A stretch of 64,000 bases of DNA, taken from the IMG/VR virus record IMGVR_UViG_3300009108_000480, one strand, 5' to 3'. Numbering within the stretch: position 1 is the stretch's first letter; every line of letters starts with the position of its first letter. The DNA is from a virus. Taxonomy: Duplodnaviria; Caudoviricetes. Made by a program: the position numbers and the translations under genes. The notes under the pieces were generated by a model. The model was not told the DNA's origin. It did no database searches and saw only the letters and a program-made list of their open reading frames with translations. Positions 15,657 through 32,587 of the stretch are shown piece after piece.

Positions 15657-18600
15657 ATGATTAACGCAAAGTTAAGGAAGATTTTATTAAGCACAGCTCT
15701 TGCTACGACTCTATCAGCTTGTGGAGGCGGTGGCGGTGGTTCTGGTGCTGGTGTTGTAAATGATTTTGTTCAAGGTGATTTATCTAATTTATCAGGATCA
15801 AGTTCTATTGTAAGTTCTTATTCAAGTTTATTATCAAATTTCCAATCAACTATTTCAAGTGGAAACTATTCTAGTTTACAAGCAGTATTAACAGGACCCG
15901 ATGCAGATGATATAGAGACAGCAAATACACTATTATCAATGTTAAACCAAGCAGAAACACTTTGGTCTCAAACAGAAGATTTAATATCAAGTAAAGACGA
16001 TTCAACAAAATATACAATATATAATTCTAATTCATATAAAGAAGCATACGCGGCCATGATTTATTTGAGAGATCATGTTAAACCTATTATACAAAAAGTA
16101 TCAAATGGTAATGCAGTATCTCTAACAGAATACAATTTGGTTGCAAAAGAAGATAAAGCACAAGAAATTATTAATACAGAAAAAGATACAACTGCAACAA
16201 GTTATGCTGAAACTAAAAAAATTAAAAGTACAGAAACAGTAAGTGGTACATCTACAGTTTCAACAGTTGATACAGTAGGTACTGCTGAAGCATCAACTTC
16301 AACAAGTGACTGGACAACTGTAAATGCTGGTGGTGGACAAGAAACAAGAACAATTACAATTACTACTCCAAATTACCGAACTACTACAACAACACCTTGT
16401 ACAATAGTTAGAAAAACTTTATTAAATGGTACAACAGTTGATAGTGCCTGTACATATGGAACACCGGTTGTTTCTACAATAGCTTTAGATCCAACAGTAG
16501 AAACTTCAACAGAAACTAGAGAAGGTGACAATCCAGTAATAACATCAGAAACTCTTGAAGCTACGGTTAATACAGTTACTGAAACCAACGATCAATATGT
16601 TGTGACAAATTATGCAGATGCAGAAGATACAAATACAACTACTGCAAACGGAACTGCGGTTACTACAACTGCAAACAGAGATGTTGTTACAGATGTTGAT
16701 AATGGTGACAACACTACGACAAGAACAACCGTAAGATATGTTGATACTACAATTACTACACCAGTCACAACTACGGTAACAAGAACAAGAACTTACACAG
16801 ATATTACAAAACAAAATTCTAGAACAATTACAACTACAACACCACAAACAAAGGTTACATATAAAGACGGTACATCAGAAACTATTTCAGGTACTGCAAC
16901 AGTAGTGACAAGTGATTGGACAGTTAATACAATTAGTACTGCTACAAGAACAGAAGAACTACCAGTTAGTGAAACAACTGCTAATACAGTTTCTACTTCA
17001 AGTAATTCAGGTACACAAATTGCACAGGTTACAATTTCAAACGCATACACAGATCAAGATACAACACTAGGTACAAAAACAGAAAATATGTCTACAGTTG
17101 TAAATGATCACAAAACAACTGAATACAATACAAACCACGGATTGAATACTATAAATGCCGCAGATGCTTATGCAAAAGGATGGACAGGTAAAGGTGCAGT
17201 ATTAGGAATAATTGATACATACCAACAAACTGATCACCCAGAATTAAGTGGCAAATATAAATGGTACAATGATTATACAAGATATGATAATACAGTATCT
17301 ACATCAGGCAATACACAAGTTCACGGTACACACGTTGCAGGTATTATAGCAGGTAAAAAAAATAATACAGGAAATCACGGTGTGGCGTTTGATGCCGAAT
17401 TAGTTGGTGCCAACGTTGACTATTATGGATATGGTGGTATTTCAAAAAGTTATGCTCAACAGGCATTACATGATTTTGCAAAATTAAAAGATCCAAATGG
17501 CGAAAATTTAAACATTGTCGCAGTTAATATGAGTTGGAATACTCCAACATTGTTTACTAATGGACAAGGTAGTACAGTAACTCAATTAGGAGATGGCACA
17601 TATAACGCATCAGAAATTACTTCAAAAATGGACAATGGTGATGGAAATGCAAAATATTATAAAGTAGCAACTGACAACGATATTATTTTAGTAAACTCTG
17701 CAGGTAACTATGGATTCAATCACTCAGGTGATCCCGGTATTTGGGCAGTAGAAGTAGATGCAAGTGGAAACCTTATATTAGGTGGCAAAATGATTATTGT
17801 AGGTAACTGGGATAACGGAACAATTGCAGGTAATAAAGCAGGTCACGTATGTTTAGACATTTCTAATAATGCTTGTAATGACCAATACAAAGTTTCAGAC
17901 TTTTATATTTTAGCACCAGGTAATCTTATCAATAGTTCTGTTCCAACTCATTTAGGTGGCAATGGATATATGAATATGTCTGGTACTAGTATGGCGGCAC
18001 CACACGTAACTGGAGCATTTGGTGTAATAAATCAAATGTGGCCACACATGAAAGGTGACAATCTTGTTAAACTTATATTGTCTACTGCAAATAAAAATAT
18101 ATATGGTTATAATGTAAACACACACGGACAAGGTTTATTAGATTTAAGTGAAGCAACAAAACCACAAGGTGCAACAGGTATTCCAACAACAGGTAGAACA
18201 AACGGACCAATTATAAATGTATATGGAACATATTTTGCAACTGGTACTGCGTTGCCAAGTAATTTAGCAAATTTAAAAGTAATGATATTGGATGAATATG
18301 AAAGAGATTATTATCTAAATTTAGGATCAAGTTTTTCAGTTAAAGATATGAGAAAAGTATCTGATATAGATATGATGATGAATGGACACACATATCTTCC
18401 AATTCAATCTATGTACGGAAATTTTGCACAAGGTGGCAATTATGATTTAGGATATATGAACTTTGGTATATACTCAGGTGAAAATGGAAATGGAGACTTT
18501 TCAGCAAATATAGGTAAAAACTTTATGTTAAGTAATAAATTTAAATTAAAAACATCAATTGGACAAATGAATGAACAAGACAACTGGTTAGGTAACTCTT

Positions 18601-19268
18601 CAAGTGGTGCATTAGCAGTTGGTGATAATAACATTACAAATTTTGGACAAATAGGTATTGAATATCAATTAGGTAACAATGTGTTAAGTTTTGATTATTC
18701 AAAAGGTTATACAGATGTTAATACAACTGATAATAGTTTAATAACAGGATTTGATAACATTGAAACAGAATCTATGAAACTAGCATATGAAGTACACAAG
18801 GATCAAAATAATTCTTGGGGATTCTCATTATCAACACCAAGTCATATTACAAATGGTACAATGAATTTAACGGTTCCTGAATCAAGAACATTAGATGGTG
18901 ATGTTAATTATACAACTATCGAATCTGATATGAGTCCTTCTAAAATTGAAAAAGATATTGGATTCTTTTATAATCACACACCAACAAATGATATGGATGC
19001 ATCTTGGAACTTTAAAGCAGAATACAGACAAGATATTGCTGGACAAGATGGACACGATGGTGTTAGTTTAGGATTTAACTATGTTAAAAAATTACACACA
19101 AATTGTAAATTTTTATGGATGAAAAATCCAAAATGTTACGAAAAAGATGGCAAAACTTTAAAAGCAAATTTATACGGTGACAGCAGAAATAATAATTCAA
19201 TAGCATTAACACACGGATTAGTTTACGATTTAGAAACAGACAAATTCGTTCCAATTAAAAAGAAATAA
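15657..19268 (+). CDS. Lipoprotein S8 (subtilisin) serine protease with Thr-rich stalk and C-terminal beta-barrel-like region
   Basis: Lipobox LSAC then poly-Gly; triad GIIDT, HGTHVAG, GTSMAAPHV; oxyanion NSAGN; alternating aromatic strands in C-terminal third. Confidence 0.88.
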   Translation: MINAKLRKILLSTALATTLSACGGGGGGSGAGVVNDFVQGDLSNLSGSSSIVSSYSSLLSNFQSTISSGNYSSLQAVLTGPDADDIETANTLLSMLNQAETLWSQTEDLISSKDDSTKYTIYNSNSYKEAYAAMIYLRDHVKPIIQKVSNGNAVSLTEYNLVAKEDKAQEIINTEKDTTATSYAETKKIKSTETVSGTSTVSTVDTVGTAEASTSTSDWTTVNAGGGQETRTITITTPNYRTTTTTPCTIVRKTLLNGTTVDSACTYGTPVVSTIALDPTVETSTETREGDNPVITSETLEATVNTVTETNDQYVVTNYADAEDTNTTTANGTAVTTTANRDVVTDVDNGDNTTTRTTVRYVDTTITTPVTTTVTRTRTYTDITKQNSRTITTTTPQTKVTYKDGTSETISGTATVVTSDWTVNTISTATRTEELPVSETTANTVSTSSNSGTQIAQVTISNAYTDQDTTLGTKTENMSTVVNDHKTTEYNTNHGLNTINAADAYAKGWTGKGAVLGIIDTYQQTDHPELSGKYKWYNDYTRYDNTVSTSGNTQVHGTHVAGIIAGKKNNTGNHGVAFDAELVGANVDYYGYGGISKSYAQQALHDFAKLKDPNGENLNIVAVNMSWNTPTLFTNGQGSTVTQLGDGTYNASEITSKMDNGDGNAKYYKVATDNDIILVNSAGNYGFNHSGDPGIWAVEVDASGNLILGGKMIIVGNWDNGTIAGNKAGHVCLDISNNACNDQYKVSDFYILAPGNLINSSVPTHLGGNGYMNMSGTSMAAPHVTGAFGVINQMWPHMKGDNLVKLILSTANKNIYGYNVNTHGQGLLDLSEATKPQGATGIPTTGRTNGPIINVYGTYFATGTALPSNLANLKVMILDEYERDYYLNLGSSFSVKDMRKVSDIDMMMNGHTYLPIQSMYGNFAQGGNYDLGYMNFGIYSGENGNGDFSANIGKNFMLSNKFKLKTSIGQMNEQDNWLGNSSSGALAVGDNNITNFGQIGIEYQLGNNVLSFDYSKGYTDVNTTDNSLITGFDNIETESMKLAYEVHKDQNNSWGFSLSTPSHITNGTMNLTVPESRTLDGDVNYTTIESDMSPSKIEKDIGFFYNHTPTNDMDASWNFKAEYRQDIAGQDGHDGVSLGFNYVKKLHTNCKFLWMKNPKCYEKDGKTLKANLYGDSRNNNSIALTHGLVYDLETDKFVPIKKK

Positions 19269-20006: not shown

Positions 20007-20018
20007 TAAATATGCTTA

Positions 20019-20387
20019 ATGAGAGCATATCAATTCATAACAGAAGCACAAGACTCTGACGCAGTAAACGAGCTAGACTCGTACATAATGAATAACGAAG
20101 ATTTATATCGTAGACGTTTTATGCCTATTATTGAAAACATTAAAAGAAAAATGAGAAGAGGTATATACGACCATGAAAAAGTAATTAAATTATGGATGTA
20201 CCTTGTAGATGATGCGGCCAGAGAATATGTTAAAGAATTTGGCACACCAGATCAAGATGTTAAAGATATGTTTCCAAAAGAAACTAGATTAAAAGTTGCT
20301 CAAGTAATAGCAGATAGAGAAAAGGAAAATATAGAAAAAGGCGAATACGATGTTGTTAAAGGAACTGTTTCTCAAAGAGGACGGTAG
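20019..20387 (+). CDS. Hypothetical protein with capsid-targeting-like N-terminus
   Basis: MRAYQFITEA; TAAATA 6 nt before ATG. Confidence 0.6.
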   Translation: MRAYQFITEAQDSDAVNELDSYIMNNEDLYRRRFMPIIENIKRKMRRGIYDHEKVIKLWMYLVDDAAREYVKEFGTPDQDVKDMFPKETRLKVAQVIADREKENIEKGEYDVVKGTVSQRGR

Positions 20388-21519
20388 GGCAACAGCCGTT
20401 TTTGCTTTTGGCCGATTTAATCCTCCCACAATAGGACACCAAAAATTAATTGAACTGGTCCAAGCCCAGGCTAAAAAAGTTAATGGCAAAGGATTTATTT
20501 TTCTATCTCATACACAAAACGCAAAAAAAGATCCACTTTCTTTTAATCAAAAGTTAGCATATCTACGAACTTTAATAAATGATCCAGATTTAGAAATTGG
20601 ACATAGTGAAGCAAATACAGTCATAAAAGCATTACAAGTTATTGAAGCACAAGGCAGAACAAGAGTTATAATGGTTGCTGGTAGTGATAGAGTAATGGAA
20701 TTTGATAAACTGTTAAAACAATATAATGGCAAACCAGATCAAAAAGGCAACGAACTTTATAATTTTGATTTTGTAGATGTTATAAGTGCTGGAGAAAGAG
20801 ATCCAGACGCAGAAGGTATATCAGGTGCTTCGGCATCTAAGGCAAGAGAGTTTGCACAAAACGATGATTTTGCAAATTTTTCTAAAATTGTAATGGGCGG
20901 TACAAAAAGTAAAACAATTTACCAAATGATTCAAAATGCTATGGGTGTAAAAGTTGCAATGAACAACGAAAAGTTGTACAATGAACAAATGGAAAATAAA
21001 CCTATAGTGTATATAGATATGGATGGAGTATTAGCTGATTTCTTTGGAGGCGTGGAAAAACTATATGGCGTAGAACATTGGAAACAATTAACATCAGATA
21101 AAACAAAAGATTTAAAACAAGAAGTAATTAATCGAATTACTGGCACTGACTTTTTTGCAACACTCCCAGAATTTCCAAATGCTGATCAATTAATTACTTT
21201 GGTTAAAAAATTTACTGGAGGTTCGTTTTCTATTCTAACATCACCACTACGGGGTGATCATGAAGTTTCGTCAAAATACAAAAAACTATGGATTGAACAA
21301 CATATTGAAAAACCAGATGAAACTATTATTACTGGAAGAAAAGAATCATACGCAAAAGACAAAGCATCAGGTACACCAAATATACTAATTGACGACAGAC
21401 CAGTTAATATTGAACGTTGGCAAGGGGCAGGCGGATATGGAATTTTATACCAAGCGAATAGAGATCCATTAAGTAAAGTACAACAAGCACTTGACAACTA
21501 TGGACAAAACGATCAATAA
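20350..21519 (+). CDS. HIGH-type nucleotidyltransferase (cytidyltransferase-like) fused to HAD 5'(3')-deoxyribonucleotidase-like domain
   Basis: FGRFNPPTIGH, AGSDR, SASKAR; C-terminal DMDGVLADF, ILTSP, ILIDDR. Confidence 0.85.
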   Translation: MLLKELFLKEDGRATAVFAFGRFNPPTIGHQKLIELVQAQAKKVNGKGFIFLSHTQNAKKDPLSFNQKLAYLRTLINDPDLEIGHSEANTVIKALQVIEAQGRTRVIMVAGSDRVMEFDKLLKQYNGKPDQKGNELYNFDFVDVISAGERDPDAEGISGASASKAREFAQNDDFANFSKIVMGGTKSKTIYQMIQNAMGVKVAMNNEKLYNEQMENKPIVYIDMDGVLADFFGGVEKLYGVEHWKQLTSDKTKDLKQEVINRITGTDFFATLPEFPNADQLITLVKKFTGGSFSILTSPLRGDHEVSSKYKKLWIEQHIEKPDETIITGRKESYAKDKASGTPNILIDDRPVNIERWQGAGGYGILYQANRDPLSKVQQALDNYGQNDQ

Positions 21520-22693
21520 ACATTTCTGCATTCAGCCCTTTATAAACGTAACTACAAGAATTACCGGAAATCACAACGTCTGTTGTAATACTACATTTAA
21601 AGACAGCAATATAAAAAAACAAACTTCATACGATTTTTTTAATTCCGATAAAGTTAAAAAAATGAGAAATGACTTGTTAAATGGTAAAAGATTAGCTGAT
21701 TGCCGTTTATGTCAATATCAAGAAAAAAGTGGACATCATAGTCATAGACAAAAATATAATGAATACTATTTTATTAAAAACAAACAATCCTCTGATTATT
21801 ATAAAAATATTGTAGAAAAATTACATATTAATACTTTGCAAAGACCTTTATATGTTGATATACATATTAGTAACCTATGCAATTTAAAATGTTTAACTTG
21901 CAACGAACGTGATAGCAGTATGTTTCATGCTGAAAACAAAATATTAGGTATTAGTGAGGCTCCTAACACAAATTATACAAAATTTGTAGTAGATACTGTT
22001 GATGCAATTAAGGAAATAATACATCCAAGATTATTGTTTTTAGATATACGAGGTGGAGAAACTTTAATGGTTCCCGAAATAAAAAAAGTCTTATCTACTA
22101 TTCCTAACGATATTGCAAAAAATATTACTTTAAAAATACAAACAAATGGAACAATCTTTCCTGATAAAACCTGGGTATCAATATTCAAAAAATTTAAAAA
22201 TACCAAAGTAAATGTAAGTATCGATGCATATAAAGATGCTAACACTTACATAAGATATCCTTCCGATTGGCAAAAAATATTAAACACAATAGAATATTTA
22301 AAACAACAAAATATTAAATTTATTATAAACACAGTAGTATCTAATCTTAATATATTAAAACTAGACAAATTGCTTAACTGGATAAAAGAAAAAAAATATT
22401 TAAATTACTTCTATATACTAGATGCTCCATTACATTATAGACCTACAAATTTACCAAAACAAATCTTAAAATTAGCAGGTAAACGATTATCTAATATAAG
22501 CAAAGACTTTACTAACAAAGAAATAACTAAAGCAATTGATCAATTAATAGATATGTGCTATAACACAAATAACTTTAACATTAAAAATTGGCAAACATTT
22601 TGCAAAGAAGTACATATAAGAGATAAACATCGAAACAATAATATATTAAATACATTACCCGAACTAGAAGGACATCTTAATGCCAAAATTTGA
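21491..22693 (+). CDS. Radical SAM protein with N-terminal SPASM/twitch-like domain
   Basis: CIQPF...VCC, CxxC, CNLKCLTC, GGET. Confidence 0.85.
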   Translation: MTTMDKTINKHFCIQPFINVTTRITGNHNVCCNTTFKDSNIKKQTSYDFFNSDKVKKMRNDLLNGKRLADCRLCQYQEKSGHHSHRQKYNEYYFIKNKQSSDYYKNIVEKLHINTLQRPLYVDIHISNLCNLKCLTCNERDSSMFHAENKILGISEAPNTNYTKFVVDTVDAIKEIIHPRLLFLDIRGGETLMVPEIKKVLSTIPNDIAKNITLKIQTNGTIFPDKTWVSIFKKFKNTKVNVSIDAYKDANTYIRYPSDWQKILNTIEYLKQQNIKFIINTVVSNLNILKLDKLLNWIKEKKYLNYFYILDAPLHYRPTNLPKQILKLAGKRLSNISKDFTNKEITKAIDQLIDMCYNTNNFNIKNWQTFCKEVHIRDKHRNNNILNTLPELEGHLNAKI

Positions 22694-22850
22694 AGGAATC
22701 AATAAAAATTATTCATCCGATAAAGAATATAAAAAATCAACACAAGAAGAACGTGATCGTATGATGAAAGAATTTCTTGCCAAAGGTGGCAAAATACAAA
22801 AAATACCTTCTAAAGTAACAAAACAAATGATAGAAAAGGGTAAGTTTTAA
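22680..22850 (+). CDS. 56-aa protein with SutA RNAP-binding-like motif (not in ORF track)
   Basis: My translation: MPKFEGINKNYSSDKEYKKSTQEERDRMMKEFLAKGGKIQKIPSKVTKQMIEKGKF; fills gap exactly. Confidence 0.65.
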   Translation: MPKFEGINKNYSSDKEYKKSTQEERDRMMKEFLAKGGKIQKIPSKVTKQMIEKGKF

Positions 22851-22881
22851 AAGCATCTACCTAAAAATAAATACTGATATA

Positions 22882-23427
22882 ATGAATATCAGGAACCTAA
22901 TTAACCAAATTGACCAAATAGAAGAGACTAAAGCACACTATATACAGTCTAAACTACCCTATGGTCTTACAGATCTAGTGCCTGTAATGAGTAAGGACAC
23001 ACTAGACTATCATTATGGCAAACTATATAAAGGCTATGTAGATAAAGCTAACAAAAGTGAGGGCGGTGACTTCCAAATAGCAGGTGCATTCTTACACAGT
23101 TTATATTTTCCTCAATTTAAAGCTCCTGCAGGAGCTAACAGGCCAACTGGTGTTTCTAACGAATTTATAAATGATTTTGACAAGTTTAAAGAAGAATTTA
23201 CAAAAGCGGCAATGGGCATCCAAGGTTCAGGTTGGATCTATATGGATACAAGTGGTACAATTAAAACAATTAAAAATCATAAAGTTGTAAAAAATATTGC
23301 ACTATTAGTCGACTGGTGGGAACACGCATGGGCACTTGACTATCAAGCTGACAAGACAAAGTACCTAGTAAATACTTGGAAGATAATAAATTGGGACGTA
23401 GTTAACGATAGGATTAACGCAAAATGA
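22882..23427 (+). CDS. sod: Fe/Mn superoxide dismutase
   Basis: LPYG..DLVP.MS..TLDYH, LHSLYF, GIQGSGW, DWWEHAW; all four metal ligands appear present. Confidence 0.9.
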   Translation: MNIRNLINQIDQIEETKAHYIQSKLPYGLTDLVPVMSKDTLDYHYGKLYKGYVDKANKSEGGDFQIAGAFLHSLYFPQFKAPAGANRPTGVSNEFINDFDKFKEEFTKAAMGIQGSGWIYMDTSGTIKTIKNHKVVKNIALLVDWWEHAWALDYQADKTKYLVNTWKIINWDVVNDRINAK

Positions 23428-24032
23428 GAGCAAATGAATTTTTAGAAGGTCCACATGATCCTTATCAGTATAAAGCAATATTTTTTGCTGGCTCCCCAGG
23501 TGCAGGTAAAACATATGTTGCTAGAAAATTAGCAGGTGTATTCCAAGGATTAAAACAAGTGAACATGGATATTATTTTTAAACATCTTATGACAAGAAAA
23601 AACTTATCATGGAAAATGCCTCCAGAAGAAGAACCTGAACGAGAAAAACAAAGACAAAGATCAAAAGAATTAGTTACTAAACAACAACAATCATTATCTG
23701 ACAGTGGATTGGGTTTGCTAATAGATTCTACAGGTAGAATAGCTGGAACTGTTAGACGTATTAAAGACGAGTTAGAAGATAAAGGATATGAAACAACAAT
23801 GATATTTGTAACCACAGATTTACAAACTGCTTTACGCAGAAATAAAGAAAGAGAACGTACACTACCAGATAAACTTATACATCAAAATTTTGATATTATA
23901 GACCAAAGGTTGGGAGAATATCAACGTATGTTTAATGACGTACACGTTATTAATAATTCTGATATTGAACAAGATTCAATGCCTAAACAACTTGTACAAG
24001 TTGAAAAAAATATAAGGAAATTTTTACAATGA
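23424..24032 (+). CDS. P-loop kinase (zeta toxin/AAA_33-like)
   Basis: FFAGSPGAGKT, LLIDST, ALRRNKERERT lid. Confidence 0.75.
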   Translation: MRANEFLEGPHDPYQYKAIFFAGSPGAGKTYVARKLAGVFQGLKQVNMDIIFKHLMTRKNLSWKMPPEEEPEREKQRQRSKELVTKQQQSLSDSGLGLLIDSTGRIAGTVRRIKDELEDKGYETTMIFVTTDLQTALRRNKERERTLPDKLIHQNFDIIDQRLGEYQRMFNDVHVINNSDIEQDSMPKQLVQVEKNIRKFLQ

Positions 24033-24277
24033 AAAAACTATTATGGCCATTAATAATGTTAAAGAATATAGTAGATCCTAATTACTGGGCAAATAAAATA
24101 GGCAATAAAACAGGTGCATATGATAAAGCACATAACAGTAAACTTGCACAATGGTCGCGTAGCCTTACAGGATGGAAATGGTGGGCATGGCAAATAGGTG
24201 GTGGTTTAGTATTTGTTGTTGTAATAGAGATGTTATTAAATTTTATAGGCCTTAGTATGTTGCCATGGAGATGGTAG
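24029..24277 (+). CDS. Small membrane protein
   Basis: C-terminal TM helix, Trp-rich. Confidence 0.55.
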   Translation: MKKLLWPLIMLKNIVDPNYWANKIGNKTGAYDKAHNSKLAQWSRSLTGWKWWAWQIGGGLVFVVVIEMLLNFIGLSMLPWRW

Positions 24278-24649
24278 ATGAAAAAACTGTTACTAACTTT
24301 ATTTTTTATATTATTTGCGTTTCCAGTATACGCATTAGAATTATTAATGGCACATAATCCTGCTTGTCATATTTGTGAAAGATTTATTAACGAAGTTGCA
24401 GTAGACTACAATGATTCTGATATAGCTAAAAAGCTACCATTGATAATTATTAGTGTATATGCACAACCCGAGTGGTTTAAACAAGCATATGCTGAAAATA
24501 GAATTAAAAAAATTAGAGGAACACCTACGTTTATAATATGGAATGGTAGAAAAGAATTAGGTAGAATTGTAGGATATCAAAGTAAAGGAAGATTTTACAG
24601 TAGACTTACAGAATTATTTCCTAAAGACTACTTTGAGGAGAAACAATGA
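24278..24649 (+). CDS. Secreted thioredoxin-fold protein (SoxS-like)
   Basis: Signal peptide, CHIC, GTPTF cis-Pro loop, ELGRIVGY. Confidence 0.75.
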   Translation: MKKLLLTLFFILFAFPVYALELLMAHNPACHICERFINEVAVDYNDSDIAKKLPLIIISVYAQPEWFKQAYAENRIKKIRGTPTFIIWNGRKELGRIVGYQSKGRFYSRLTELFPKDYFEEKQ

Positions 24650-24894
24650 AAATAAATGAAATCATGGGTGAATGGGTAATAATGCCTCAGTCAATTAAAC
24701 CTATGGGTTTAATACGCAAAAAAGGTACTGGTCCAAATAATAGATTTGATTTTAAAAACAAATACAACAACAAAGCAAACGAAGTTGAAAAAGAAGATGC
24801 CATGGGCGTCGGTACTATTACAAAACAAAACACTACAAAAGATGTTAAACCGGGCGAAACACAACGACAATTAAAAAAATTACACCTTAGATAA
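24646..24894 (+). CDS. Small protein with capsid-targeting-like N-terminus
   Basis: MKINEIMGE. Confidence 0.55.
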   Translation: MKINEIMGEWVIMPQSIKPMGLIRKKGTGPNNRFDFKNKYNNKANEVEKEDAMGVGTITKQNTTKDVKPGETQRQLKKLHLR

Positions 24895-24911
24895 TCCAAA
24901 TAATTACACAT

Positions 24912-25598
24912 ATGCGATATATTTTATGCGTTAGTTTTAAATATAAACCTTATAAAAAAACTTGTAATGTCCAAATATTTTCAAATAATTGTATGTTAGA
25001 TGACTTTGAATTACAAAACAAAAAAGTACATCTAAGATATATTGAATTAGACGAAAATGCAATTGGTAACGACTTAACTTTTAAAATTTATAACGATGAT
25101 AACAACTACTCAAATGGCTTCATGACAAAATGGGCCAAAATAAAAATACATAATGTTGTATTACTACCTAAAGCTCTGTTTAATGTAAACAAAATGAAAT
25201 TAATTAAAAATAGATTAAAATTAAAATGGCGTAGAATTATGGGAGAAGAAACGTGGCATCAAATTAATTGGCAAACCGATTCAAAAATATTTCCTCTACC
25301 TGATAGGGAAAAATCACATAAATTACAAAAGTCACATAAATGGCAAATTTATTGGCCCGGTTGTAGATACCCTTATATTAAAAGCAAACTACATGATAAA
25401 GTATTTGAAAATTACTATAATAAATGGATTGGAGAATCTTGCCAAATTATAATGAAAGTAATTAAAAAACACAATTTGCTTATTTTTGTGCCTCCAGCTA
25501 CAAAACGTTTAATAGGTTATTTTTCTATTGCTAGTCTATTAGGCATCACTCCATACATAAATATATATAATGAAAATAAACGAAGTCATAATGCGTGA
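24912..25598 (+). CDS. Hypothetical protein
   Basis: 228-aa ORF, no motif recognised. Confidence 0.55.
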   Translation: MRYILCVSFKYKPYKKTCNVQIFSNNCMLDDFELQNKKVHLRYIELDENAIGNDLTFKIYNDDNNYSNGFMTKWAKIKIHNVVLLPKALFNVNKMKLIKNRLKLKWRRIMGEETWHQINWQTDSKIFPLPDREKSHKLQKSHKWQIYWPGCRYPYIKSKLHDKVFENYYNKWIGESCQIIMKVIKKHNLLIFVPPATKRLIGYFSIASLLGITPYINIYNENKRSHNA

Positions 25599-25851
25599 AT
25601 ATGCAACTGCGGGCGCCACTTCGGCTGGCAATATAGCGGCAGTTGTAAGTCCACATATAGCTATAGGTAAAGACCGTGGCAATAAAGCATATACAGGTAC
25701 ACCAGGACGTTCAGGTACTAAAGCACCAAGACTACCTAAAATAGTACAACCCAAAAATCCAGACGGTTCAGCCAAAGGTGCACAAACAGGCAAACTAGGA
25801 AAAGATGTTAGCTTGTTTGGTGGACCATTGGTTAAGAGGAGTTACCCATAA
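25570..25851 (+). CDS. Small Gly/Ala/Lys-rich protein with capsid-targeting-like N-terminus
   Basis: MKINEVIMRE; TAAATA 6 nt before ATG. Confidence 0.6.
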   Translation: MKINEVIMREYATAGATSAGNIAAVVSPHIAIGKDRGNKAYTGTPGRSGTKAPRLPKIVQPKNPDGSAKGAQTGKLGKDVSLFGGPLVKRSYP

Positions 25852-26258
25852 TGAGAGCACAAGAATTTACAGAAGGTGCAGATTTTTTAGGATACAAATA
25901 TAATGCTCCTACAAGAACATGGGAATTTCCAGATGGTTTTGAAACGCAAACTGGACATTTAAGTAATCATAGTGTAAGGGAAATTCTAGACGCATTAGGA
26001 TTAGATTCAAATTTTGAGGACGCAGGTCCAATTGAAGTAGACAAATTTATAAACATATCTACTGCATGGTTAAAGAAAAATCTTGACAAACCATCAGCAG
26101 ATGTTCCAACAACAGTTGATAAATCCGGAGGCGGAGCAACTATGATAAGTGGTGGCAGACCTGAGGGTTGGATAAACAAAATGGTTATGACATTTAATAA
26201 AGAAGCAAGAAGAATTAAACAAGCACACCCAGATTTAACACACGTGGCATTTGCATAA
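25851..26258 (+). CDS. Hypothetical protein with capsid-targeting-like N-terminus
   Basis: MRAQEFTEG; TAATG coupling. Confidence 0.6.
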   Translation: MRAQEFTEGADFLGYKYNAPTRTWEFPDGFETQTGHLSNHSVREILDALGLDSNFEDAGPIEVDKFINISTAWLKKNLDKPSADVPTTVDKSGGGATMISGGRPEGWINKMVMTFNKEARRIKQAHPDLTHVAFA

Positions 26259-28201
26259 TGAGATTAAAAGAAATTAACAAACCTATAAAAGAATATCGAA
26301 ACGTAGTTATTCCAAAAGATGAGGCACATTATAGAGAACTGATGAAACATCTCCAAGACATGGAATTAGATCCTGTGAATAGACGTGATGAAAAACTTAT
26401 GGCAGAAATACGAAGAAGAAGAATGGAACTAAGAAACTGGGCAGAAAAAAATATAAAAAGAGAATCACAACCTGATGTAGGTGCCGAAAGAGCAGATGCG
26501 GCTAGAGGTATGTGGGCATCAAGTAAAGAAATACAATCAAGATTTAAAACTTGGCAAGACTTTATGAATTCAGAAGATTTTGATGAATGGTTAGATGACA
26601 AGTTTAGAGAAGACATGATTCCAAATAATATGCCGGGTAATATTGGTGACTATGCTCATGAAAAATCTACAGGTAAACTTGTAAGAATAGTTGACTATAC
26701 AGATGACGATGAAGGCATTTACACAATATCTTACGGTGAGGGTCAAGGCGAAACAGATGTGACTGCAGGAGATTTAGAATTTATAGATCCAACTGTACAT
26801 CAAGACTTAGATGACAAAATATTAGACAAAGAAGTTGATGAAGGCTTTATAGGAAAGAAACCAGAATACACTGATTTTTTACAAAACAAATTAGAAAAAG
26901 CTATGCAAGAATACGATACCCCAGAAAAAAAAGCACAACGTGATGCGTTGATGAAACAATATCTTGCTAAAGGTGGTTCAGTTGAAAAAATACCAGCTGG
27001 TCAAAAAGCATTTGTTGGTAAAAAGTTAAAACCAGCATATAGAAAAGATAACGGAACACCTATTACAAGTCCAGGAAGTGATGAATCAGTAAAAGAATTA
27101 GATGACAAAGAAAGAACTATCTCTACTATCAAACACAGTTCTGATAAGGATGTTGCGTTTTTTGACAAGATGATGAAACGATATGGACCTAAACTGATGG
27201 AACTGATAATCGATTATAGTCATATCAACAATGATCAAAAAAAGGCAGAAAAATTAAAAAAATGGGGTAGGGAGGATGATGTATACTTGTCAGACTACTA
27301 CAATCAACTGTTTCATGTAGACGAAGACCTTATTAGTATGCTCATGTCAGCGGCAGATAACAATCCTAAATTAATAGATTTCTTCTATGACAAAGTGGAA
27401 CAGGCCAAAAAGGCAGGACAGTTTGCAAAAACTTCAAGGTTACCAGATCCTGACCAGACAGAAGAATCAGCAGTACAAGAAGACGCACCATTTGATGGAA
27501 AAGGTATATTACAAAGAGCAGTTTTTAATAAATGGATATCAGCAGAAGAATGGTATCATTTAAAAGATGAATGGCAAGATGCGGCTCGAGAATTAGAACA
27601 AAGATATAGTGATTGGCCAGACGGAGAAGGGTTTGGATCATCGGATCATAATTTTGCAATTAGAGATTTAATGAGTATAGTAGGATACGAATTTGATGAC
27701 CAAGACACTAGTGGTAAATTTGTTGTAACTAAAATGCCAGAGAAATTAGAAAAATTAGGTATAACAAACGTAAGAATGAAAGGCGAACCTGTTGCAACAG
27801 AGGCAGAGCAAAATGAAGATACAGAAGCAACTTTATTAGGTAAAGCTGAAGCTTCTTTAATGCACGGATTAGAAATGGCCCAGGCTGTACTTAAAAAAAA
27901 TTATGGCATGGCAGAAGTTCAGGCTAAAGTTATTTCAGAAAATTGGCCACCTTTAATTGATAAAATTAAAAATGTATACAAAACAACCGAACAAAATCAA
28001 GATGGTTTACAACCAGTTGATTTAAAAAGATTAGGTCAAACAGAACCTAAAATATATGTTCATAAAGATGGCAAAACAATAATGATACCAAAAAGAAAGC
28101 ACAACGAGTATCTTGCGAAAGGATGGAAAAAATCGGCATTAAGGGCTGAGACTTCATACGAGTCAAAACTTGCCGAAATGTTAAAACAACGTCTTAAATA
28201 A
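26258..28201 (+). CDS. Large acidic mosaic protein, candidate internal head protein, with SutA-like motif
   Basis: MRLKEI start; QRDALMKQYLAKGGSVEKIP; short domains joined by Glu-rich linkers. Confidence 0.6.
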   Translation: MRLKEINKPIKEYRNVVIPKDEAHYRELMKHLQDMELDPVNRRDEKLMAEIRRRRMELRNWAEKNIKRESQPDVGAERADAARGMWASSKEIQSRFKTWQDFMNSEDFDEWLDDKFREDMIPNNMPGNIGDYAHEKSTGKLVRIVDYTDDDEGIYTISYGEGQGETDVTAGDLEFIDPTVHQDLDDKILDKEVDEGFIGKKPEYTDFLQNKLEKAMQEYDTPEKKAQRDALMKQYLAKGGSVEKIPAGQKAFVGKKLKPAYRKDNGTPITSPGSDESVKELDDKERTISTIKHSSDKDVAFFDKMMKRYGPKLMELIIDYSHINNDQKKAEKLKKWGREDDVYLSDYYNQLFHVDEDLISMLMSAADNNPKLIDFFYDKVEQAKKAGQFAKTSRLPDPDQTEESAVQEDAPFDGKGILQRAVFNKWISAEEWYHLKDEWQDAARELEQRYSDWPDGEGFGSSDHNFAIRDLMSIVGYEFDDQDTSGKFVVTKMPEKLEKLGITNVRMKGEPVATEAEQNEDTEATLLGKAEASLMHGLEMAQAVLKKNYGMAEVQAKVISENWPPLIDKIKNVYKTTEQNQDGLQPVDLKRLGQTEPKIYVHKDGKTIMIPKRKHNEYLAKGWKKSALRAETSYESKLAEMLKQRLK

Positions 28202-29646: not shown

Positions 29647-29927
29647 TGTATCGTTTACTCAAAGAATTTTGGGTAAACAGTTATAAAACGGACCAAGTTG
29701 CTTTTTGGAATGAGCTGTTATCTGTAATTGTAACAATTATGGGTTCCTGTATTTTAACATTTACCTCACCACACCCAACAATGCATTATGTATTTCCATT
29801 GTACTTGCTAGGCTCTAGTACTTTGTGTTATGCTAGTTGGAGAAGAAGAAGCATTTGGATTGTAACTTTATCCGGATGGTTTACATTAATGAATATAATA
29901 GGAAATTATAGAGTATTTTTACTATGA
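29646..29927 (+). CDS. Small multi-TM membrane protein
   Basis: GTG start, three hydrophobic segments. Confidence 0.55.
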   Translation: MYRLLKEFWVNSYKTDQVAFWNELLSVIVTIMGSCILTFTSPHPTMHYVFPLYLLGSSTLCYASWRRRSIWIVTLSGWFTLMNIIGNYRVFLL

Positions 29928-32587
29928 GTTACATAGACGCTTTATATAAAAAAGATGAAGACAAAGTATATGTAGTTGAAAGAAACTCTAAAGGTAAAAG
30001 AATTTTTGTAGACTATGATGCTAGATATGTATTCTATTATCCAGACTCTAGAGGTAAGCATAGATCTATGACTGGACTATCATTACAAAAAGTACAATGT
30101 AGAACTTCAAAAGAATTCATTAAAGAGCAACGGATAAGATCCAATAAAACTCTTTATGAACAAGATATCAATCCAGTGTTTAGATGTTTGGAAGAAAATT
30201 ATCTAGGCAAGGAAACTCCTAAACTGAACACTATGTTTTTTGATATCGAGGTGGATTTTGATCCTGAAAAGGGTTATGCCACAACTGACGATCCGTTTAT
30301 GCCCATTACTGCCATTAGTTGTTATATGAGCTGGACGGATCAGTTAGTTACTTTTGCACTAGTACCTAAAACACTATCTACACAAGATGCTAAAATGCAA
30401 ACAGAACGATTCTCTAACTGTATGTTATTTCAAAAAGAAAAAGATATGTTAGATGCATTTCTTACACTAGTTGAAGAAGCAGATGTTATATCAGGTTGGA
30501 ACTCTGAAGGATATGATATTCCATACACAGTAGGTAGAATACAAAAAGTATTAAGTTCCGATGATACAAGACGTTTATGTTTTTGGGGTGAGAAGCCCAA
30601 GAAAAGAACATTTGAAAAATATGGTAGAGAACAATTAAGTTATGATTTAGTTGGACGAGTACACTTAGACTTATTAGAATTATATAGAAAATACACATAT
30701 GAGGAAAGACATTCATTTAGATTAGATGCAATTGGTGAACACGAACTAGGTGAGAAAAAAACTGTTTACGAAGGATCATTAGATTCACTTTATAAAAATG
30801 ACTTCGGATTGTTTATAGAATACAACAGACAAGACTGTAATCTACTTGCTAAACTAGAAAAAAAATTAAAATTTATTGAACTTGCCAACGAAATTGCACA
30901 CCAAAATACTGTGTTGCTACAAACAACAATGGGTGCAGTTGCAGTAACTGAACAAGCAATAGTTAATGAAGCACATAGACGTGGCATGATTGTTCAAGGT
31001 AGACGTTATAGAAAAGAAGGAGAAGAAGTACAAACGGCGGCAGGTGCTTATGTGGCAACTCCAAAAAAAGGAATGCATAATTGGATAGGATCAATGGATA
31101 TTAATTCACTATATCCTTCAGTTATTAGAGCATTGAATATGGGACCTGAAACTATTGTGGGACAAATAAGACCTGTAATAACATCAGCAGAAATAAACAG
31201 AGCTAAATTTCAAAAAAAATCATTTGCGGCGGCTTGGGAAGGACAATTTGGTAGTTGGGAATATCAAGCAGTAATGAAACAAGATAAAGGTACTGAACTT
31301 ATTGTAGATTGGGCTGATGATACATCTGTAAGAATGTCAGCGGCACAATTATATGATATTATATTTGATGGCAAAAACAAATGGATGTTAAGTGCTAATG
31401 GTACAATATTTACATATGAGTTTGAAGCAATTATTCCAGGCTTATTAAAACGTTGGTATACTGAAAGACAAGAAATGCAACGTAAAATGGATGCTTGTGG
31501 TGAAAACGAAATTGAAAGATCATTTTGGGATAAAAGACAACTTGTTAAAAAAATTAATTTAAACAGTTTATATGGAGCACTTTTAAATCCAGGTTGTAGA
31601 TTTTTTGACATAAGAATTGGACAATCAGTAACATTAACAGGTCGATGCATTACAAAACATATGGCGGCAAAAGTAAATGACATTGTTGCGGGCAAATATG
31701 ATCATTCTGGCCAATCTATAATATATGGAGATACAGATTCAGTTTATTTTACTGCACATAAAACTTTAAAAAATGATATTGACGCAGGCAAAATTACTTG
31801 GAATAAAGATTCAGTAATTGCTTTATATGATAAAATTGCAGAGGAAATGAATACAACATTTACAGGTTATATGACTAAAGCATTTCATTGCCCAAATACT
31901 CGTGGCTCTATTATTAAAGCAGGTAGAGAACTTGTAGCAATTAAAGGTTTGTTTATTACAAAGAAAAGATATGCAGTACTGTATTATGATAGAGAAGGTG
32001 AACGTGTAGATAATGCAGGTAGAGAGGGCAAAGTGAAAGCTATGGGATTAGATTTAAAAAGATCAGATACTCCTGTATTTGTTCAAGATTTTTTAAGTGA
32101 AATACTGTATATGGTATTAACAGGTAAAACTGAAGAGCAAGTATTAGAAGCAATTACAAATTTTAGAGCAGAATTTAAAGCAAAACCAGGTTGGCAAAAA
32201 GGATCTCCTAAACGAGCAAATAACGTAACCAAGTATACTGAATTAGAAAAGAAACAAGGCAAAGCAAATATGCCAGGACACATACGAGCAAGTATGAATT
32301 GGAATAATTGCAAACAAATGTATAATGACAAATACTCATTGCCAATTACAGATGGTGCAAAAGTAATTGTATGTAAACTTAAAAACAATCCATTAGGATA
32401 TACATCTGTTGCATACCCTACAGATGAATTACGTATTCCACAATGGTTCCAAGAATTGCCATTTGATAACGAAGCAATGGAACAAACTATACTAGATGGC
32501 AAACTAGATAATTTAATTGGTGTATTAGACTGGGATATACAAAGCACTGAAACCAGTAATACATTCAACAAACTTTTTGAAATCTAA
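29924..32587 (+). CDS. Family B DNA polymerase with 3'-5' exonuclease (T4 gp43-like)
   Basis: Exo FFDIEVD, WNSEGYDIPY, YNRQD; Pol SMDINSLYPS, KINLNSLYG, YGDTDS; no intein or intron. Confidence 0.97.
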   Translation: MSYIDALYKKDEDKVYVVERNSKGKRIFVDYDARYVFYYPDSRGKHRSMTGLSLQKVQCRTSKEFIKEQRIRSNKTLYEQDINPVFRCLEENYLGKETPKLNTMFFDIEVDFDPEKGYATTDDPFMPITAISCYMSWTDQLVTFALVPKTLSTQDAKMQTERFSNCMLFQKEKDMLDAFLTLVEEADVISGWNSEGYDIPYTVGRIQKVLSSDDTRRLCFWGEKPKKRTFEKYGREQLSYDLVGRVHLDLLELYRKYTYEERHSFRLDAIGEHELGEKKTVYEGSLDSLYKNDFGLFIEYNRQDCNLLAKLEKKLKFIELANEIAHQNTVLLQTTMGAVAVTEQAIVNEAHRRGMIVQGRRYRKEGEEVQTAAGAYVATPKKGMHNWIGSMDINSLYPSVIRALNMGPETIVGQIRPVITSAEINRAKFQKKSFAAAWEGQFGSWEYQAVMKQDKGTELIVDWADDTSVRMSAAQLYDIIFDGKNKWMLSANGTIFTYEFEAIIPGLLKRWYTERQEMQRKMDACGENEIERSFWDKRQLVKKINLNSLYGALLNPGCRFFDIRIGQSVTLTGRCITKHMAAKVNDIVAGKYDHSGQSIIYGDTDSVYFTAHKTLKNDIDAGKITWNKDSVIALYDKIAEEMNTTFTGYMTKAFHCPNTRGSIIKAGRELVAIKGLFITKKRYAVLYYDREGERVDNAGREGKVKAMGLDLKRSDTPVFVQDFLSEILYMVLTGKTEEQVLEAITNFRAEFKAKPGWQKGSPKRANNVTKYTELEKKQGKANMPGHIRASMNWNNCKQMYNDKYSLPITDGAKVIVCKLKNNPLGYTSVAYPTDELRIPQWFQELPFDNEAMEQTILDGKLDNLIGVLDWDIQSTETSNTFNKLFEI

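Follow-up and report, generated by a model that had tools for sequence, protein, structure and literature searches.

The 64,000-nucleotide stretch of viral DNA considered here, referred to as the window, comes from a tailed phage (Caudoviricetes; IMG/VR record IMGVR_UViG_3300009108_000480). At 20019-28201 it holds a block of 13 open reading frames (ORFs), eight of which encode unrelated proteins that open with a similar short peptide. This peptide, which we call the leader, spans ~8-15 residues: Met, Lys or Arg, two variable positions, Glu, Gln or Asp and a hydrophobic residue, with an end in hydrophobic-x-Glu. The sequence-only reading of this DNA had likened it to the capsid-targeting sequence (CTS) of phage T4 and proposed that the block is an enzyme payload carried in the virion. 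We consider it likely that the common N-terminus of these eight proteins is a T4-type capsid-targeting propeptide.

Eight proteins with a common start

All eight starts of the sequence-only reading were recovered at its coordinates, each opening a real ORF. With a strict form of the pattern (^M[KR][AI][YNQ]?[EQ][FIVLM]), tested on all ATGs in six frames, 5 of 2427 ATGs match, and all five are gene starts (20019, 23424, 24646, 25570 and 25851). The looser pattern of that reading, M-(K/R/L/N)-x-x-(E/Q/N)-hydrophobic...E, fits 8 of the 13 ORFs in the block vs 0 of 79 elsewhere in the window (Fisher p = 1.4e-8); the motif is thus not equally common among the other genes. Four further loose matches in the window are internal ATGs that mark no gene start. 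Three members fit the loose pattern only, namely 20350 (MLLKELFLKE), 22882 (MNIRNLINQIDQIEE) and 26258 (MRLKEINKPIKE), and each has the terminal hydrophobic-x-Glu. The leader ends in I-T-E, L-K-E, I-E-E or I-K-E in four members and in F-L-E, F-T-E, M-G-E or M-R-E in the other four.

The tagged genes all lie on the plus strand. The first (20019..20387) encodes a 122-residue protein of unknown function. Its leader, MRAYQFITE with an I-T-E ending and AQ directly after it, is closest to T4 IPII and IPIII (MKTYQEFIAE) and to the start of T4 gp22 (MLKEQLIAE, then AQ), and an ortholog in a related contig (L010) starts MRANQFITE. The protein matched nothing in Pfam, PHROG or NCBIfam, and the Atlas gave viral hypothetical clusters only. 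Behind the Alt-type leader MLLKELFLKE, the second gene (20350..21519) encodes a 389-residue fusion of a HIGH-motif (NMNAT/cytidylyltransferase-like) nucleotidyltransferase and an NT5C-type HAD 5'-nucleotidase. The fusion carries PF01467 and PF06941, matches the PHROG cytidyltransferase at 1e-53 and finds 5'(3')-deoxyribonucleotidases in the PDB. Its nucleotidyltransferase domain scores 24.6 bits for PF01467 (cut-off 21) and has the HxGH motif as PPTIGH; scores against the NMNAT equivalogs of NCBIfam were all far below the cut-offs.

The third tagged gene (22882..23427) encodes a 181-residue Fe/Mn superoxide dismutase (SOD), with PF00081 and PF02777 both above their cut-offs and a leader ending in I-E-E. 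The alignment to solved SODs begins at residue 24, opposite residue 7 of PDB entry 1ues, so that relative to PDB SODs there are ~17 extra N-terminal residues (MNIRNLINQIDQIEE...). In the 1ues alignment the metal-ligand positions H, H, D, H are conserved and the helical hairpin is shortened; judged by both domains and the four ligands, the protein is classed as an Fe/Mn SOD. The fourth gene (23424..24032) encodes a 202-residue P-loop kinase of the Zeta-toxin/PSTK/polynucleotide-kinase class (PF06414; PDB matches to PSTK and zeta/PezT), in which the leader MRANEFLE runs into GPHDP. The enzyme assignments of the sequence-only reading (nucleotidyltransferase-nucleotidase, SOD, P-loop kinase) hold in Pfam, PHROG and PDB searches, which place them as HIGH nucleotidyltransferase with NT5C nucleotidase, Fe/Mn SOD and P-loop kinase.

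Two small basic proteins come next, one of 82 residues (24646..24894; isoelectric point 10.0; leader MKINEIMGE), with longer orthologs of 215-247 residues in related contigs, and one of 93 residues (25570..25851; isoelectric point 10.3), in which the leader MKINEVIMRE is followed by YATAGATSAGNIA. The gene at 25851..26258 encodes a 135-residue acidic protein of unknown fold, with the leader MRAQEFTE and then GADF. An AlphaFold2 (AF2) model of it reached a pLDDT of 80.8, with residues 1-6 below 50; against the PDB and AlphaFold clusters this fold gave no informative match, only a weak DUF1840-like resemblance, and the Atlas look-up returned viral hypothetical clusters only. The last tagged gene (26258..28201) encodes a 647-residue mosaic acidic protein with the leader MRLKEINKPIKE, ending in I-K-E.

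The leader lies outside the conserved domains, as seen in the ~17 extra residues of the SOD and in residues 1-6 of the 25851 model with pLDDT below 50, and it is an add-on to the folds of the tagged proteins. Among 120 close variants of the kinase the start reads M-[RK]-[IAL]-x-E-[IFL]-[TLIV]-E, then GPHD, with M1, E5 and E8 invariant and positions 2, 3, 4, 6 and 7 variable. In the 25851 family (30 members, 41-94% identity), E8 is among only eight invariant columns, and the other leader positions vary within the pattern. Orthologs in related contigs likewise hold the pattern with other residues (MRANEFLE, MRINEILE, MKIKDITE). Because M1, E5 and E8 are fixed while their neighbours vary, it is the leader pattern and not its sequence that is under constraint, as expected of a functional peptide signal.

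We also inspected the DNA ahead of these genes. Three plus-strand TAAATA boxes reported by the sequence-only reading lie 12-14 nt before an ATG: at 20007..20012 (12 nt before that of 20019), 22868..22873 (14 nt before that of the SOD gene) and 25558..25563 (12 nt before that of 25570). These T4-late-like boxes precede three sub-operons of the block and resemble the T4 late-promoter core, TATAAATA. The same box, at similar spacing, also stands before some ten further genes in the window, clamp-loader-region and radical SAM genes among them; TAAATA lies 11-14 nt before the ATG at about 13 starts, e.g. 6482, 14968, 20019, 25570, 28228, 29081, 37210, 43903 and 59856. Between box and ATG there is no Shine-Dalgarno sequence. 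If TAAATA serves as a T4-type late promoter, the 5' untranslated region (UTR) would be close to absent and the late mRNAs leaderless or nearly so. When the 60 nt upstream of the eight starts were listed and inspected by eye, without formal alignment, no obvious common DNA sequence was seen, and on that ground a mobile DNA cassette or promoter module was rejected as the source of the shared start.

T4 capsid targeting and the virions of relatives

In T4, the CTS of IPI, IPII and IPIII and the Alt propeptide are removed by gp21 (Mullaney & Black 1996; reviewed in PMC9026906 and PMC3012670), which cuts after L/I-x-E (PMC9026906). The first ten residues of IPIII are enough to package foreign proteins (PMC9026906; PMC3012670); within them, targeting is influenced by residues 4 and 7 and processing by residues 8 and 10 (PMC9026906). 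Tagged cargo can be ejected and active, as with T4 Alt and IPI, and the T4 CTS has been foreseen as a possible general loading route for T4-like phages (PMC9026906).

In the T4 record, MKTYQEFIAE is the start of both ipII and ipIII, and MELITELFDE that of alt; gp22 (MLKEQLIAE-AQ), gp67 (MEGLIE-A) and gp21 (MNEPQLLIE) open in a related manner. Set beside these, MRAYQFITE resembles MKTYQEFIAE and MLLKELFLKE resembles MELITELFDE, which bears out the likeness to the T4 CTS that had been proposed. In both phages a short N-terminal peptide sits on unrelated proteins, with an M-K/R start, Gln or Glu plus a hydrophobic residue in the middle and a hydrophobic-x-Glu end. Both T4 flavours occur in the window, the IP/gp22-like (MRAYQFITE-AQ) and the Alt-like (MLLKELFLKE), and the cargo of T4 also includes an enzyme (Alt). 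In T4, Asp at position 10 stops processing of the leader while targeting persists. The window leader differs in often having 8-9 residues, not 10, and in the frequent F or M at P3. Its cargo consists mainly of metabolic and stress enzymes (SOD, nucleotidyltransferase-nucleotidase, kinase), whereas that of T4 is dominated by small basic anti-restriction proteins. Moreover, this phage is a marine jumbo of roughly the 400-kb class, only a distant relative of T4, and is known here from its genes alone. The phiKZ-like giants (phiKZ, 201phi2-1, SPN3US) are alike in that head-internal proteins are trimmed after a short Glu-ending motif by a gp21 homolog; there, however, the sites lie within longer propeptide regions with multiple sites, and a shared 10-residue N-terminal address is not described (PMC9026906).

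The 25570 protein connects the leader with the capsid. After the leader Glu it copies the N-terminal arm of the major capsid protein (MCP): hydrophobic-x-E, then ATAGATSxGNIA. Its family, which comprises at least 1346 protein clusters and has no Pfam family, places Glu two residues before ATAGAT in 101 of 101 members, and P3 is V, I, M or F in 98 of the 101. The pattern [AS]G[AS]T..GN[IV] occurs once each in the six-frame translations of phages Atu_ph07 and PA5oct, both times in the MCP, directly after L-M-E or L-V-E. In a first IMG/VR pattern scan, 108 of 119 matches were T4-like capsid proteins (...YL[SA]E[ST]-ATAGATSAGNVATLNRVILPVIRRVMP...GVQPM), and these MCPs share with those of Atu_ph07 and PA5oct the form hydrophobic-x-E-x-ATAGATSxGN[IV]A; the remaining matches, in both scans, were mostly small proteins with a leader or modules at the C-terminus of larger proteins, after ...E[ST]. 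T4 gp23 is cut after L63-T64-E65, and because the hydrophobic-x-E before ATAGATS aligns with that site, we predict it to be the capsid maturation site. Consistent with this prediction, the MCP shifts in mass from 42.2 to 37 kDa in 121Q and from 51 to 45 kDa in Bellamy. That the 25570 family copies the predicted prohead-protease site supports the last Glu of the leader as a cleavage site.

Members of this family have a basic tail (...KSYTG.PG.SGTKAP...) and either stand alone behind a CTS-like leader or form the C-terminal module of larger proteins. Internal ATAGATSxGNIA sites occur in the stretches L100, L101, L142, L177, L209, L224, L225 and L241, and the C-terminal end of Atu_ph07 gp53 is a degenerate version of the same sequence.

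The leader also appears on a protein of the head operon. Between the portal and Peptidase_S77 protease genes, PA5oct has a gene for a 73-residue protein that starts MKINDIITE-GYYNP and was detected by mass spectrometry (MS). Its Atu_ph07 equivalent is gp199, a virion protein with the start MKLTELFNPLTE-SYYDP, and T4 holds gp67 and gp68 in that post-portal position. The junctions GYYNP and SYYDP resemble the kinase junction E-GPHDP.

To relate the motif to virion membership on a whole-genome scale, we matched all ORFs of Atu_ph07 by exact mass to its published virion proteome (Table S5 of PMC6102473). With the pattern ^M[KR]..[EQDN][LIFVM].{1,3}E, 22 of 822 called ORFs fit, and 18 of these 22 are in the virion proteome (odds ratio 18, Fisher p = 2e-9). 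This enrichment is conservative, because ambiguous small masses inflated the background, and gp43 and gp57 are two more cases that the ORF caller missed. Eleven genes in a row, gp53-gp63, open with M[RK]W.[QD]L.E or a near variant, and all their products were detected by MS in virions. Leaders are also carried by gp47, gp381, gp408, gp482, gp548 and gp672. Attai et al. 2018 (PMC6102473) appear not to describe the leader, since the term 'N-terminal' never occurs in the main text.

As in the window, tagged genes are grouped in gp53-gp63, and gp53 contains a homolog of the window kinase with a Glu-Gly junction. In Atu_ph07, by contrast, most of the cargo seems to consist of Alt-like ADP-ribosyltransferase paralogs, judging from an N-terminal YRGM motif noted by eye without a domain search, and the kinase is one domain of an 87-kDa polyprotein: it is internal to gp53 (87 kDa), after SEVTE-G, which aligns with the EFLE-G junction of the window. 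Within the virion proteome gp53 was most abundant in a ~20-kDa gel band, and gp63, gp482 and gp483 also ran far below their predicted sizes (PMC6102473); these low gel sizes fit proteolytic processing. By comparison with these four proteins, the 647-residue protein of the window may be a polyprotein. This protein and two orthologs, 647-708 residues long (26258-28201; L010:14379-16505; L013:3939-5903), share 15-41% identity, yet their extreme C-terminal tails are identical (YESKL..L.QRLK). C-terminal trimming is known for T4 Alt as well. The shared tail could be a second processing or targeting element. As a separate observation, the Atu_ph07 virion proteins gp33, gp206 and gp594 have a second common N-terminal motif, M(S)..LRK[FY].NIL.ESY, which may be another class of assembly tag.

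Homologs of the tagged enzymes are found in the particles of other phages. The closest match to the SOD in phage records is EST35_0261 of PA5oct (41% identity), which has its own N-terminal extension, MNDSIKKYISIAE. Its GenBank entry bears the note 'ESI-MS/MS', which the neighbouring genes lack; according to the PA5oct paper, this label marks proteins of purified virions. PA5oct has only a handful of motif-bearing ORFs and is uninformative on motif vs virion beyond gp150 and the SOD. SOD is not among the subjects of the MIJ3 paper. A cytidylyltransferase is reported from the S-CREM2 virion, kinases and cytidyltransferases are said to be 'frequently detected' in cyanophage virion proteomes, and delivery into the host is proposed (PMC10665884). 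The T4-like cyanophages S-CREM2, S-CRM01 and S-TIM5 are alike in having the same enzyme classes in purified particles; they differ in that the portion of that source consulted describes no targeting signal, and their enzymes have an extra N-terminal region of 70-95 residues. The cyanophage paper of Sullivan 2010 has nothing on cytidylyltransferase or internal proteins. Homologs of the nucleotidyltransferase start MKTLKELL in Pelagibacter phage HTVC008M, MKSFTSFFTE in P-TIM68 and MRAKDFIFEE in another low-GC jumbo fragment, and the kinase homolog of Methylophilales phage Melnitz starts MKTFAELQE-GVYDP.

Explanations for the leader

If the leader acts as a T4-type capsid-targeting propeptide, it would bind the assembling scaffold core of the prohead, so that the attached protein is enclosed. 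A gp21-family prohead protease would cut after the terminal Glu and release the mature protein inside the head. The cargo would comprise the nucleotidyltransferase-nucleotidase, the SOD, the P-loop kinase, the two small basic proteins, two acidic proteins of unknown fold and the 647-residue mosaic protein. If it behaves like the internal proteins and Alt of T4, some or all of this cargo would be ejected together with the DNA and be active in the next host ahead of phage gene expression. On gene comparisons, the tagged enzymes of this phage are probably shipped inside the particle. The claim of packaged enzymes made by the sequence-only reading stands in part, and its core is strongly supported by comparison: the pattern agrees with the leaders of T4, it predicts virion membership in Atu_ph07, and homologs of three of the enzymes have been detected in the virions of cultured relatives.

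Several points weigh against capsid targeting with injected cargo. Three of the eight leaders match the loose pattern only, and at P3 several carry F or M instead of L/I, which relaxes the T4 rule. The TAAATA box is not specific to the tagged set, because it also precedes genes without a known head link. The MCP cleavage position in these lineages is extrapolated from T4 and from mass shifts, and injection of the cargo is likewise an extrapolation from T4. A gp21-family protease in this phage is assumed from relatives; its own protease, scaffold and MCP genes lie outside the window. Such a Peptidase_S77/gp21-family prohead protease is present in Atu_ph07 (gp204), PA5oct and a low-GC jumbo fragment (G006); a PF03420 search of five related IMG/VR contigs, fragments without the head region, found nothing. 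As to the virions of relatives, those of Atu_ph07 were purified with polyethylene glycol only and their proteome also lists replication enzymes (PMC6102473), so that detection there is not proof of encapsidation. The SOD detected in PA5oct could be carry-over, since that phage has few leader-bearing genes, and the S-CREM2 authors state that co-purification could not be excluded (PMC10665884).

A head-assembly propeptide might also mark proteins that do nothing in the next host: the tagged proteins would then be structural or assembly parts, or passively trapped, and be packaged and trimmed but inactive after infection. The same leader stands on the post-portal core protein of PA5oct and Atu_ph07 and on the T4 scaffold proteins gp22 and gp67, and the mimicry of the MCP N-terminal arm by 25570 suggests a capsid-bound role. 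Yet the tagged enzymes are complete, with their catalytic motifs intact (SOD ligands, P-loop, HIGH), enzyme cargo is kept across distant phages, and T4 Alt and IPI are tagged cargo that is ejectable and active (PMC9026906). We regard this alternative as unlikely, though it deserves some weight. It seems improbable that the leader has no capsid role and instead serves to inhibit or regulate the protein, or to direct it elsewhere, with removal by a Glu-specific protease in the cytoplasm or another compartment. Strict conservation throughout is limited to the hydrophobic-x-Glu ending, which defines a protease site rather than an address; however, the motif tracks virion membership in Atu_ph07 (18 of 22), it is found on core proteins of the head operon and at the maturation site of the MCP, and a Pfam scan limited to the ORFs of about 15.6-29.6 kb identified no other Glu-specific protease. 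A secretion signal was rejected: the leaders are charged, not hydrophobic, and the true signal-peptide genes (24029, 24278) are without the motif.

We give even less credence to an expression feature, in which A-rich 5' codons or the N-terminal peptide would aid translation of late, possibly leaderless, mRNAs. The genome has 31% GC, the leader codons are AAA, AGA, ATA, AAT and GAA, and TAAATA boxes only 12 nt ahead of the ATG would allow for hardly any 5' UTR. About ten other TAAATA genes nevertheless do not have the pattern, and most leader-bearing genes are without a box of their own. Conservation falls on E5, hydrophobic residue 6 and the terminal Glu with the adjoining positions free, and the same peptide recurs internally, at the domain junctions of Atu_ph07 gp53. 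Chance resemblance, for which a short motif always leaves some room, and common ancestry of the genes are both scarcely credible in view of the clustering (p = 1.4e-8), the orthologs that hold the pattern with different residues and the unrelated folds of the tagged proteins, on which ground paralogy was rejected.

Neighbouring genes, cargo and significance

Five genes of the block are without the leader and are interspersed among the tagged ones (21500, 22680, 24029, 24278 and 24912). The gene at 21500 encodes a radical SAM enzyme, that at 24029 a membrane protein with a signal peptide and that at 24278-24649 a thioredoxin-like protein (PF13098), also with a signal peptide; 24912 is a further ORF. 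The thioredoxin-like protein and the adjacent small membrane protein represent phage-encoded periplasmic redox functions beside the SOD. The fifth, a plus-strand 56-residue ORF at 22680..22850, has the clearest motif resembling the RNA-polymerase-binding domain (RBD) of SutA, with 27.2 bits for the SutA-RBD family PF20661 (Pfam cut-off 29.3) and 25.1 for NF041490 (cut-off 145; E = 2.5e-5). A copy of this motif, 21 residues long, lies at residues 227-247 of the 647-residue protein. With the ORF below both cut-offs and the larger protein sharing only the 21-residue motif, neither is placed in the SutA family; from these comparisons, the likeness is a resemblance to an RNA-polymerase-binding segment, not membership. 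Of the SutA-like tagged cargo proposed by the sequence-only reading, the part that survives is the motif in the leader-bearing 647-residue protein, whereas the best match falls in an ORF without the leader and below cut-off.

The window has ~31% GC, and its plus strand holds nearly all genes. The family-B DNA polymerase (29924-32587) is nearest to those of Sinorhizobium phage Phosso, Agrobacterium phage Atu_ph07 and Rak2/121Q jumbo myophages (42-50% identity); a megablast of the 20019-28201 block against phage records gave no match. Close IMG/VR relatives are fragments, and because CheckV rates them ~29% complete at 137 kb, we estimate a genome of roughly 400-470 kb. Kinase homologs fall into 331 protein clusters. 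The lineage is common in marine metagenomes, with the identical kinase protein indexed in 39 blocks of the contig collection. In bubblegram imaging of six jumbo phages, a phiKZ-like inner body was seen only in the Rak2-like 121Q (PMC5646251), which fits a large internal protein load in the Rak2-like group.

Directly upstream of the tagged block, 15657-19268 encodes a 1203-residue lipoprotein-type subtilase (S8) with a Thr-rich stalk; one entry in the Atu_ph07 virion proteome is likewise an 'extracellular serine proteinase' (gp329; 139 kDa). The stretch L195:1-3821, some 27 kb past the window end, contains a gene for a 4537-residue protein with faint CBM_5_12 and FG-GAP matches, which comes after a radical-SAM and sugar-tailoring operon.

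With regard to what the cargo may do, the kinase, NT5C phosphatase and nucleotidyltransferase are adjacent in HTVC008M and Melnitz, and two of them are fused in this window. Together with a ligase-like protein they occur as neighbours or fusions across marine T4-like phages (HTVC008M, Melnitz, L012:4969-6801, S-8S55). The ligase-like protein has an N-terminal THLEHxED motif, and a KxDG motif was seen by eye in its S-8S55 copy. In one contig the kinase is fused to a protein that matches, at its N-terminus, a protein of a cyanophage with a KxDG ligase-type motif, again noted by eye without a domain search. The co-occurrence of kinase, phosphatase, nucleotidyltransferase and ligase-like protein suggests one pathway, and the predicted activities fit NadR-type NAD salvage or RNA end-healing.

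A broader proposal, which we put forward as a tentative and rather doubtful one, is that of a portable cassette. Here a marine T4-like/jumbo leader with a capsid-maturation site (together with the copy of the MCP N-terminus in one family) would load a swappable counter-defence kit: the NAD-salvage- or RNA-repair-like nucleotidyltransferase, nucleotidase and kinase, the SOD, and the RNA-polymerase-binding SutA-like segment. If this were true, the injected proteome of uncultured ocean phages would be readable from sequence alone.

Among the papers searched, none was found to describe the leader in jumbo, pelagic or cyanophage lineages, and the quantitative Atu_ph07 test and the capsid-site-mimicking family may be new. 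The Atu_ph07 result gives a concrete and checkable rule, in that 18 of 22 motif-bearing ORFs are virion proteins, and the capsid-mimic module of 25570 represents a phage protein family that is very common yet undescribed. Should the leader be a capsid address, the genome would suffice to predict what cargo an abundant lineage of uncultured ocean phages carries. It would also explain the recurring cytidylyltransferases and kinases in cyanophage particles and the SOD in PA5oct virions. Pre-made enzymes of NAD and nucleotide metabolism and oxidative stress, possibly with RNA polymerase binding, would then form a first-minute layer of takeover or counter-defence.

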